Assembly (NCBI GenBank): GCA_963702895.1
Contig: OY969767.1
Span: 1,792,001 to 1,856,000 of the forward strand
Length of the DNA: 64,000 bases
Source: an uncultured Elusimicrobia bacterium
Lineage (GTDB): Bacteria; Elusimicrobiota; Elusimicrobia; 2-01-FULL-59-12
Direction: 5' to 3'
Below, piece after piece: positions 11,772 to 22,492 of this stretch; the first letter of the stretch is position 1; the number at the start of each line of letters is the position of its first letter. Position numbers and translations under genes: made by a program. The notes beneath the pieces were generated by a model, which made no database searches, was not told the DNA's origin, and was given only the letters and a program-made list of their open reading frames with translations.

Positions 11772-12152
11772 TTAAAGGGAGGAGCGTTTTGCATGCGTGT
11801 TGAGGGGTTCATGCTTGGAAGCCCTCGCAGGCTGCTTGAGACGAGGGGGTTGGCATGCATTTCCTAGAGCCAGTCGCACTTTTCTCGGGCGCGGGAGGCG
11901 CTTGATGCCGGCTTCTCTGCGCAGAGCTGCGGCGCGGCAATAGCCTTGTTCGGAGTAAAGAAGCCGTACCGGTCGATGGGTGCGCGTGTAGGCGCCGCCG
12001 CGCCCGGCGTTATGGGCCAGGACCCGGGCTTTTAAGTCTTTGGTAATGCCCGTATAAAGCGTGCCATCCGAGCACCGAAGGATATAGACATACCAGTCCG
12101 TGCCGCCATCGTCTTTCATGCCAGCGAGCATCTTCACATAACGGGGATGCAT
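11772..12152 (-). CDS. GIY-YIG nuclease (UPF0213/YhbQ-like)
   Basis: WYVYILRCSDGTLYTGIT, HNAGRGGAYTR and ALRREAGIK. Confidence 0.9.
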   Translation of the reverse strand: MHPRYVKMLAGMKDDGGTDWYVYILRCSDGTLYTGITKDLKARVLAHNAGRGGAYTRTHRPVRLLYSEQGYCRAAALRREAGIKRLPRPRKVRLALGNACQPPRLKQPARASKHEPLNTHAKRSSL

Positions 12153-21081: not shown

Positions 21082-21201
21082 AAGGGTCGCACTCCCGGGG
21101 CAGGACTCGGGCGCCACACATCAGGCGCCCGCCCGACCGTCGTGTGTCGGGCGAACCTGCAACCCTGCGAGGATGTTCTTCAATGCACGTCGGCCATTGC
21201 C
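21082..21201. repeat. ~120-bp direct repeat containing a tRNA-Asn 3' fragment plus trailer (second copy 21394-21513)
   Basis: Two near-identical copies 312 bp apart. They match the variable loop, T-arm, acceptor and trailer of the tRNA at 21715-21755 once a 44-nt insert is removed. Confidence 0.95.
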
Positions 21202-21381
21202 GCTTTTTAGATACTTTTCACGTTTAAGCGCTTCGTGAAGAGTCGGCCAGGGTTCCTTGAAGACCAACTGATAGGTGCGCTTGTTAGTCTTGTGTTCTGC
21301 TAATCGACGAATAAGATCTTCGGTTAAACCAGTATAGAGCTTGCCCGTTTTCTGACACCGAAGGATATAGATCCAGTACAT
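21121..21381 (-). CDS. Small GIY-YIG nuclease (tandem copy 2)
   Basis: MYWIYILRC..LYTGLT..RRLAEH..ALKREKYLKSGNGR, 86 aa. Confidence 0.88.
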   Translation of the reverse strand: MYWIYILRCQKTGKLYTGLTEDLIRRLAEHKTNKRTYQLVFKEPWPTLHEALKREKYLKSGNGRRALKNILAGLQVRPTHDGRAGA

Positions 21382-21432
21382 TTCAAAACACTGAAGGGTC
21401 GCACTCCCGGGGCAGGACTCGGGCGCCACACG

Positions 21433-21693
21433 TCAGGCGCCCGCCCGACCGTCGTGTGTCGGGCGAACCTGCAACCCTGCGAGGATGTTCTTCAATGCAC
21501 GTCGGCCATTGCCAGACTTTAGATACGCTTCTCGGCGCTGTGCTTCGGATTTGCTCGTACGAGCTTCCTTGTGGACTAACTCGTAGTATGGCTTCTTGAC
21601 TCTATGTTCGGCAAGACGTCGGTCTAAGTTTTCGGCGAAACCGACATACAACTTGTGAGTACCTTTACACCGAAGAATATAAACCCAGTACAT
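21433..21693 (-). CDS. Small GIY-YIG nuclease (tandem copy 1)
   Basis: MYWVYILRC..LYVGFA..RRLAEH..AQRREAYLKSGNGR, 86 aa. Confidence 0.88.
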   Translation of the reverse strand: MYWVYILRCKGTHKLYVGFAENLDRRLAEHRVKKPYYELVHKEARTSKSEAQRREAYLKSGNGRRALKNILAGLQVRPTHDGRAGA

Positions 21694-21724
21694 TCCTAGA
21701 GTGTCTAGAGAGTAAAGGGTCGCA

Positions 21725-21796
21725 CTCCCGGGGCAGGACTCGAACCTGCAACCCTCCCGTTAACAGCGGGATGCTCCACCATTGAGCTACCCGGGA
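21725..21796 (-). tRNA. tRNA-Asn(GTT), CCA not encoded
   Basis: Cloverleaf TCCCGGG-TA-GCTC..GAGC-A-TCCCG-CTGTTAA-CGGGA-GGGTT-GCAGG-TTCGAGT-CCTGC-CCCGGGA-G. Confidence 0.97.
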
Positions 21797-21823
21797 GTGC
21801 GACCCTCATTGTCATTCTATCTT

Positions 21824-22018
21824 GGCAGGACTCGGGCGCCACACTACAGGCGCCCGCCCGCCTGTTGTCTGGCGGGCGAACCTGCAACCCTCCCGTTAAC
21901 AGCGGGATGCTCCACCATTGTCCGCCACTACGACTATGGCGGATCCGCCGAAGCCGCAGTGGCGGAAGCTCCGCCACACTTCAGGCGGATGCGCCTGCCT
22001 TGTGGCGCATACCCGGGA
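21824..22018 (-). pseudogene. tRNA-Asn copy interrupted by three twin-hairpin inserts and missing most of the 3' acceptor strand
   Basis: Removing 21834-21877, 21921-21966 and 21970-22009 restores the adjacent tRNA sequence exactly. Confidence 0.9.
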
Positions 22019-22243
22019 GTGCGACCCTCAAAGTCATTCTATCTTGGCAGGACTCGGGCGCCAGGCGCTAACCCGTTAGGCTATGATTGTATCTTGGCTT
22101 TTAAGCTTTGAGGGGTGATTGTAGAAAAAATGTTGATTTCTCCACAAAAACCGGGGGCCCATAAATCATGGAGGCCTATTGGGAGTGGGAATTTAGCCTC
22201 TTGGTCTATAGCAAGCACGAGGAAGATAAGACATAAACATGGT

Positions 22244-22492
22244 ATGCAAAGACAATCTTGTTTGCGGTGTCACGGACATTTACAGGCGAAAAGCGTAGAG
22301 CATCCCTACTGGAACGGCTCGAAGCTTGTGGCGCTCATTGAGGACGTTCCCTCACTCGTCTGTGAGACCTGCGGATTTCAGCACTTCGAGGAGAACGTCG
22401 AATCCAGCCTTCAGACCCTGGTCCAAGACTACATTAAAATGGGGACCCTGTTCCCCATTCCGAAAACGTCTTACCGAAATCTGTCGTCCTAA
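22244..22492 (+). CDS. YgiT-type zinc finger protein
   Basis: CLRC ... IEDVPSLVCETCG. Confidence 0.8.
   Translation: MQRQSCLRCHGHLQAKSVEHPYWNGSKLVALIEDVPSLVCETCGFQHFEENVESSLQTLVQDYIKMGTLFPIPKTSYRNLSS

Follow-up and report, generated by a model that had tools for sequence, protein, structure and literature searches.

A short-loop GIY-YIG nuclease and a double-hairpin repeat at tRNA genes of an Elusimicrobia bacterium: candidate halves of an integrase-free selfish system

The 3' ends of tRNA genes are common att sites. An integrative element that enters there duplicates part of its target gene, and one working copy survives. Free-standing endonuclease ORFs of fungal mitochondria bring a replacement gene end, and here too a working copy survives. 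Among GIY-YIG nucleases, hairpins in ssDNA and branched DNA are the substrates of the Ssn and Slx1 enzymes.

Four further described systems bear on the locus presented here. The Ssn proteins, associated with NTS/SRM repeats, are single-domain GIY-YIG enzymes of ~90 aa with a catalytic Tyr-Tyr-Glu set, and a hairpin repeat found in many places of the genome flanks their genes (PMC11893778). SsnA requires Y6, Y17 and E64, binds its own hairpin, cuts ssDNA beside it and lowers transformation, and its authors (Chenal et al. 2025) note an IS-like layout (PMC11893778). SegB of phage T4, encoded by a GIY-YIG gene in a tRNA region that is patchy among relatives, cuts within tRNA genes to leave 2-nt 3' ends (PMC2330249). 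BH0048 (1zg2) and EF2693 (1ywl) are stand-alone Slx1-like/UPF0213 proteins, minimal GIY-YIG domains with no auxiliary domains (PMC1564403). REP dimers, BIMEs and REPINs are short GC-rich palindromes, dispersed as inverted dimers 0-2 bp apart (PMC3733652).

The locus lies in a 64,000-nt stretch of an uncultured Elusimicrobia genome, termed the window; the genome carrying it is G000. A sequence-only reading made earlier had proposed, in transcription order on the minus strand, a T-arm piece, an interrupted tRNA copy, an intact tRNA-Asn and two GIY-YIG units with a 312-bp period, and this anatomy was borne out (Table 1). Each unit comprises a GIY-YIG ORF, tRNA positions 43-57, a 42-bp double-hairpin insert in the T-loop (termed a plug), the tRNA 3' end and a 10-nt trailer. 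The tRNA-Asn(GTT) gene is the sole Asn tRNA gene of G000 (48 tRNA calls), and tRNA was the only match in an Rfam search. The D-arm-start site of the dead tRNA-Asn copy is also plugged in G258, a relative from another genus. The integrase had been reported as lacking, and indeed PF00589 has no match in the window (four occur elsewhere in G000), nor was a serine integrase found among 11 neighbouring proteins. Divergent from the tRNA promoter lies a small zinc-finger-like ORF (22238-22492, plus strand), YokU-like just below the Pfam cut-off.

Table 1. Features of the tRNA-Asn array, in transcription order (window coordinates).
Feature	Coordinates	Strand	Basis
Remnant of an older dead tRNA copy: plug end and T-arm 3' strand	22046..22063	-	sequence repeats
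27-nt leader, recurring before the intact tRNA (222-bp period)	22019..22045	-	96% over 54 nt
Dead tRNA-Asn copy, ~positions 1-66, with three double-hairpin inserts, ending after the T-arm	21824..22018	-	
Double-hairpin plug, 8-nt loops, without middle bases, at D-arm start of dead copy	21970..22009	.	
Double-hairpin plug, 11-nt loops, without middle bases, in D-arm of dead copy	21921..21966	.	
42-bp T-loop plug (CG-hairpin-CG-hairpin-CG) of the upstream dead copy	21835..21876	.	
Pre-tRNA, acceptor stem extended by 10 bp (17 bp in total)	21716..21806	-	fold z -6.7
Intact tRNA-Asn(GTT), CCA not encoded	21724..21797	-	Rfam 68.9 bits
Putative short-loop GIY-YIG gene 1, 86 aa (72-aa core plus read-through tail)	21433..21693	-	Pfam
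Duplicated tRNA positions 43-57 (variable loop and 5' T-arm), unit 1, read as GLQVR	21464..21478	-	
42-bp T-loop plug, unit 1, source of the TGA	21422..21463	.	
Duplicated tRNA 3' end and 10-nt trailer, unit 1	21394..21421	-	
Putative short-loop GIY-YIG gene 2, 86 aa	21121..21381	-	Pfam
Duplicated tRNA positions 43-57, unit 2	21152..21166	-	
42-bp T-loop plug, unit 2, source of the TGA	21110..21151	.	
Duplicated tRNA 3' end and 10-nt trailer, unit 2	21082..21109	-	

The two ORFs share 71% identity overall. Their C-termini are alike, as had been observed, but the divergence spans codons 1-60 rather than the middle alone, with 19 of the first 57 codons identical. The shared tail of the units is identical at 119 of 120 nt (21082-21201 versus 21394-21513), and the identical tract starts ~35 nt inside the ORF, ahead of any tRNA sequence. 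Because the ORFs diverge over codons 1-60, doubled assembly of one unit can be ruled out: the ORF bodies match at just 14-20 of 30 bases per block, and G258 carries one such unit at the same site. On this sequence evidence the array is genuine rather than produced by assembly. In any sequencing run, at most 7% of the locus words were present.

Both ORFs read through into tRNA sequence as described, although the tRNA-derived residues are GLQVR (positions 43-57) and not AGLQVR, and the TGA stop was confirmed to come from the hairpin insert, where it lies in the loop of the second plug hairpin. The suggestion that this fusion is meaningful did not hold up. The G258 ORF enters the tRNA piece in another frame, those of the other relatives stop at or before the T-arm and ahead of the T-loop, and 0 of the 8 closest relatives read tRNA sequence in the frame used in the window. 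The GLQVR tail is therefore incidental, and a functional tRNA-coded tail was rejected.

The extended acceptor stem of the tRNA-Asn transcript recurs elsewhere. Extension by leader and trailer, by at least 8 pairs, is found for 20 of 47 G000 tRNA genes (a count in which Gly-TCC was wrongly scored 0), with 12 of the 16 tRNAs that have an upstream tRNA fragment showing it versus 8 of the 31 that do not. For tRNA-Asn it is present in all 9 genomes, with differing sequence as judged by eye (loci L031, L032 and L042-L047). It may be a fold-back repair scar or a processing signal.

Pfam GIY-YIG scores for the two ORFs were 40.8 and 41.6 bits (cut-off 22.6), and both copies retain Y5, Y16, G18, R26, H30 and E55. 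The predicted model of the 72-aa core (gene 2) has a pLDDT of 94; its best fold matches were 1zg2 (E 1.1e-3, prob 1.0) and Slx1 (TMq 0.72), none reaching E 0.001. The best sequence matches were stand-alone Slx1-like/UPF0213 proteins, the core contains no auxiliary domain, and TIGR01453 scored 22 bits against a cut-off of 56. By sequence and predicted fold, the window proteins are putative stand-alone Slx1-like GIY-YIG nucleases of a clade termed 'short-loop', as 7-9 residues are missing after the first (HxxK) helix. This clade comprises 9 rows (SH-aLRT 95) in a quick tree of 158 rows in which 91 of 155 inner branches are open, built from 150 of 189 loci (rows >85% alike or <60 aa were dropped) plus 8 own proteins. 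The two nearest named hits are from Elusimicrobiota. The window proteins share the minimal, auxiliary-free domain of BH0048 and EF2693 but differ from UPF0213 proteins in being ~7-9 residues shorter after the HxxK helix, in ending KSGNGRR and in lying at tRNAs. A YhbQ/UPF0213-type GIY-YIG gene outside the short-loop clade is also present in the window (11883-12095, minus strand), away from any tRNA.

Eight clade members lie outside the window: L002, L049-L052, L129, L130 and L242, the last added after the tree, with L241 not counted as it duplicates a protein already included. Enrichment beside tRNAs is strong: all eight adjoin a tRNA gene or half, whereas a random 220-nt interval of G000 has a same-strand tRNA within 250 nt 0.6% of the time. 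Seven have an intact same-strand tRNA-Asn, -Gly or -Gln within 55 nt, while the remaining locus adjoins a tRNA-Gly 3' half. A plugged tRNA copy is present at 8 of 8, the L129 plug being partly masked. The gene lies behind the tRNA at five loci and in front at three. The stub after the ORF matches the local tRNA species (Asn, Gln or Gly), indicating that it is derived and copied from the target; at L050 the 3' stub is absent, and L002 has Asn at the Y16 position. A search of genome contigs with a single window protein returned no locus, a tRNA call at L029 made by ARAGORN at lowered threshold was discarded as false since Rfam missed it, and viral contigs yielded no plug and three loci with relatives, none at the short-loop identity level.

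In the wider KxGxG class, a same-strand tRNA lies within 250 nt of 38 of 98 non-own rows, and the linkage divides into 37 of 50 rows outside one subclade of weak support versus 1 of 48 within it, a split chosen after inspection of the tree. All five KxGxG-class genes or remnants of G000 adjoin tRNAs: the window pair, a long-loop gene with an internal stop (TGA) in a tRNA-Ile/tRNA-Ala spacer (G000:C1:580522-580934), a gene in front of tRNA-Ala(GGC), and a remnant flanked by tRNA-Arg and tRNA-Lys. The internal-stop gene is followed by a tRNA-Ala stub with its anticodon arm swapped for a short palindrome, and similar anticodon-arm palindromes flank long-loop genes at L004, L005, L243 and L252, a hint that each nuclease clade may have its own hairpin type. 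At L004 (1416-2070), a tandem GIY-YIG pair with identical ORFs stands behind tRNA-Ala(CGC) and is a simple unit duplication, unlike the diverged window pair. The tRNA-poor subclade (L010-L012, L021, L053, L062, L064 and ~40 more metagenome loci) carries short inverted repeats around a CCCGT core, of at least 9 nt in 23 of 48, and many of its proteins read through the repeat to end in PTG; it has the look of a further IS-like element of minimal size.

The window genes thus resemble the Ssn system in size, single-domain architecture, catalytic residues and a flanking hairpin repeat that is also dispersed. Ssn-like rows nevertheless form a separate group (SH-aLRT 100; marked in the tree by two G000 proteins whose flanking hairpins are CGTC-type, not by SsnA itself), and no NTS/SRM-like motif was found within 400 nt of either ORF under a strict or a loose search. 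The window repeat is instead a tag-less head-to-head doublet in tRNA loops, and a term search finds tRNA mentioned 0 times in the available text of the Ssn paper (PMC11893778). By clade position and flanks, the window nucleases are not classed as Ssn members. With SegB they share a GIY-YIG gene in a tRNA region and a patchy distribution, but the window protein is a 72-aa core without an added DNA-binding domain, it is chromosomal, and it is accompanied by partial tRNA duplications and plugs, with the target loop beside the gene. A duplicated tRNA 3' end is shared with tRNA-island elements; unlike those and the mitochondrial ORFs, the unit has no integrase, is ~300 bp long, sits on either side of the tRNA and leaves the displaced copy plugged. 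A classical att or homing interpretation, raised at the outset, is likewise not supported for a locus with no integrase, no DNA-binding domain and an intact T-loop beside the gene.

The earlier reading overlooked that, by sequence, the hairpin insert belongs to a genome-wide repeat family that tracks the nuclease clade. A strict search of G000 found 32 doublets, 28 of them within 1 kb of a tRNA gene, and the geometry occurred 0 times in the reversed genome and three shuffled genomes; many tRNA loci bear plugs without a nuclease gene. A general search returned 71 doublets. Plugs have a grammar, X-hairpin-rc(X)-hairpin-X, in which X stands for target bases that have been duplicated. This is obeyed by 31 of the 36 copies with one or two middle bases (CG, 20 of 24; CA/TG, 5 of 5; C/G, 6 of 7), although CG is self-complementary and 24 of the 36 cases are therefore uninformative; 35 of the 71 plugs have neither middle nor duplication. 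The T-loop plugs of G258 comprise seven CA-TG-CA, five CG-CG-CG and none mixed, while 2 of 23 in G000 are mixed, both from one tandem array. Variation in the outer two stem pairs is unrelated to X. Since the plug centre changes with the target, a fixed 42-bp element is disfavoured, although CA/TG-type plugs could have spread from few founder events by homology-biased conversion. Most simply, one hairpin unit would have been added to each broken end, and copying back over X would have followed. At T-loop plugs the duplication is 2 bp, which fits the 2-nt 3' ends left by SegB (PMC2330249), 3' and 5' overhang polarity not being distinguished by it.

As inverted dimers of short GC-rich palindromes, the plugs recall REP elements, but the middle bases mirror the target and a terminal GTAG or CGTC tag is absent from the 71 plug flanks as judged by eye. 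No intact Y1 transposase was found in G000, which has just a weak fragment; Y1 transposases occur in 11 of 12 genomes of the order, a distribution that does not track the plug and so does not explain it. The array is neither an integrase island nor a REP/RAYT pair. Three plugs in the window (59604, 60572 and 61855) have 10/11-nt loops and are distant from any tRNA; two of them share one sequence, which recurs just outside the window. Elsewhere in G000 (C1:1171000-1171700), tRNA-Val(GAC) is followed by five 3'-end copies with a 120-bp period and no plug, separated by short-unit tandem foldbacks.

The T-loop plug pattern is found in 4 of the 12 order genomes (G000, 23 copies; G258, 12; G305, 4; G301, 2), and short-loop genes (>100 bits to alignment A2; next best 71) in those same four, representing three genera. 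Among 401 phylum genomes, both traits mark an identical set of three, and G407, a genome with a short-loop gene reached via L129, has the plug too. A looser plug pattern gave 13 copies in G000, 10 in G305, 9 in G301, 6 in G258, 1 in G304 and 0 in seven others. The double-positive order genomes all belong to one family and are therefore not independent, and many genomes are incomplete, several of the negatives included. As this nuclease subgroup and this hairpin share genomes, the two look like halves of one selfish element, the majority of plugs lying distant from a nuclease gene.

The same pattern bears on a passenger model, in which plugs and stubs arise from host template switching or hairpin repair, and nuclease genes accumulate in these recombination-prone scars, which supply a strong promoter, so that nuclease and plug share a lineage merely by descent. 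The kinship of the double-positive genomes would agree with this, as would the lack of a nuclease gene at most plugged G000 tRNA loci and the single plug copy of G304 (89% complete), where no short-loop gene was found. Descent alone sits poorly, however, with traits that are patchy yet coincident within one family (four genomes with both and seven with neither by the T-loop pattern) and that split genus g1 2:2. Nor would scars readily account for one clade occupying three tRNA species on either side of the gene, when YhbQ-/Ssn-type genes of the same genomes are seldom beside tRNAs (3 of 52 rows). We regard the passenger model as unlikely.

The tRNA-Asn gene could be recovered in 8 of the 11 other order genomes. 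One of these, G258, has one unit with the same T-loop plug, the upstream plugged copy and the same neighbours; one, G301, has only the upstream plugged copy, and the remaining six are plain. DUF3015 directly follows the tRNA in G301, G302 and G307, representing an empty site. Together with the closest-clade linkage, this patchiness supports the earlier proposal of an integrase-free ~300-bp cassette tied to tRNA genes. It is harder to reconcile with domesticated ssDNA restriction, whereby the nuclease would recognise the plug hairpin and cut incoming ssDNA, guarding tRNA loci against recombination or integration, with stacked alleles broadening specificity. Such a role would have precedent in the hairpin binding, adjacent ssDNA cleavage and reduced transformation of SsnA (PMC11893778), and two diverged intact alleles are indeed kept in tandem. 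It would also suit the use of tRNA 3' ends as att sites. A guarding function is nonetheless improbable for a gene present at this tRNA in 1 of 8 relatives, the more so as the three other wider-class genes beside G000 tRNAs include the internal-stop gene and the remnant, which is 5'-truncated.

A nuclease partnered with tRNA-derived RNA had also been put forward: the plugged stub would be cut from the co-transcript to serve as guide, scaffold or antitoxin, or the protein would process tRNA. The ORFs lack a clear promoter of their own, a promoter scan gave nothing beyond chance, and no terminator is predicted between the tRNA and the same-strand ORFs; TACAAT precedes the tRNA at 8 of 9 Asn loci, as judged by eye. 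The stub is also able to fold, and a TrmH-fused bacterial Slx1-like domain has been suggested to act in RNA metabolism (PMC1564403). On the other hand, the stub folds no better than shuffled sequences (z -1.9), its position and extent vary, the gene may precede or follow the tRNA, L050 has no 3' stub, and the tRNA-coded tail is conserved in 0 of 8 relatives; SsnA, moreover, does not bind RNA (PMC11893778). An RNA-partnered role therefore appears very improbable.

The reading we favour, and consider probable from comparative sequence analysis, is a nuclease-driven, integrase-free selfish system acting on tRNA-gene DNA. Its autonomous part would be the ~72-aa stand-alone GIY-YIG gene, lodged directly before or behind a tRNA and borrowing its transcription; its gene-less part would be the double-hairpin plug. 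The nuclease may cut tRNA-gene DNA at hairpin loops, chiefly the T-loop, probably as single-stranded or extruded DNA. The broken ends would each gain one 20-nt hairpin unit in the same orientation, and fold-back copying of the last target bases would produce complementary ends that join as X-hairpin-rc(X)-hairpin-X. This fold-back detail of the end-capping step is offered tentatively, as possible rather than probable. A plugged tRNA would be dead, such that survivors would be chromosomes with a duplicated tRNA, and this selection would leave plugged stubs flanking a single live tRNA gene. The nuclease gene would enter the repair junction, the tRNA piece behind it being copied from the target and not element-borne. 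Out-of-register recombination through the tRNA tail common to the units probably added the second, diverged allele to the stack, after which the last 120 nt of the units would have been homogenised. With an intact T-loop still next to the gene, the nuclease would have to cut its own locus seldom, or only as ssDNA, the substrate of SsnA.

A literature search covering few subscription journals returned no description of such an element. The locus contributes a nuclease-plug pairing at clade level, a plug grammar that mirrors the target, a frame test and two diverged alleles in a stack. If the favoured reading is true, it would explain the tRNA fragments beside 28 of 47 G000 tRNA genes (a few being possibly pieces of neighbouring tRNAs) and would identify a sister family to the Ssn enzymes. 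It is conceivable, if somewhat unlikely, that a 72-residue nuclease suffices for a mobile system without transposase, integrase or reverse transcriptase, by cutting tRNA loops whose ends, hairpin-capped and copied back on themselves, then join. Should end-capping be correct, every plug would have been assembled anew at its site with target bases in its centre, and each nuclease clade, with its own hairpin and loop, would form part of a set of tiny site-specific cutters. In uncultured bacteria, small GIY-YIG genes rank with the commonest genes that lack an explanation. For the clade described here, the plug grammar predicts the cut site, and the combination of one nuclease clade, one repeat and one target loop makes the spread of tag-less palindromic repeats testable.
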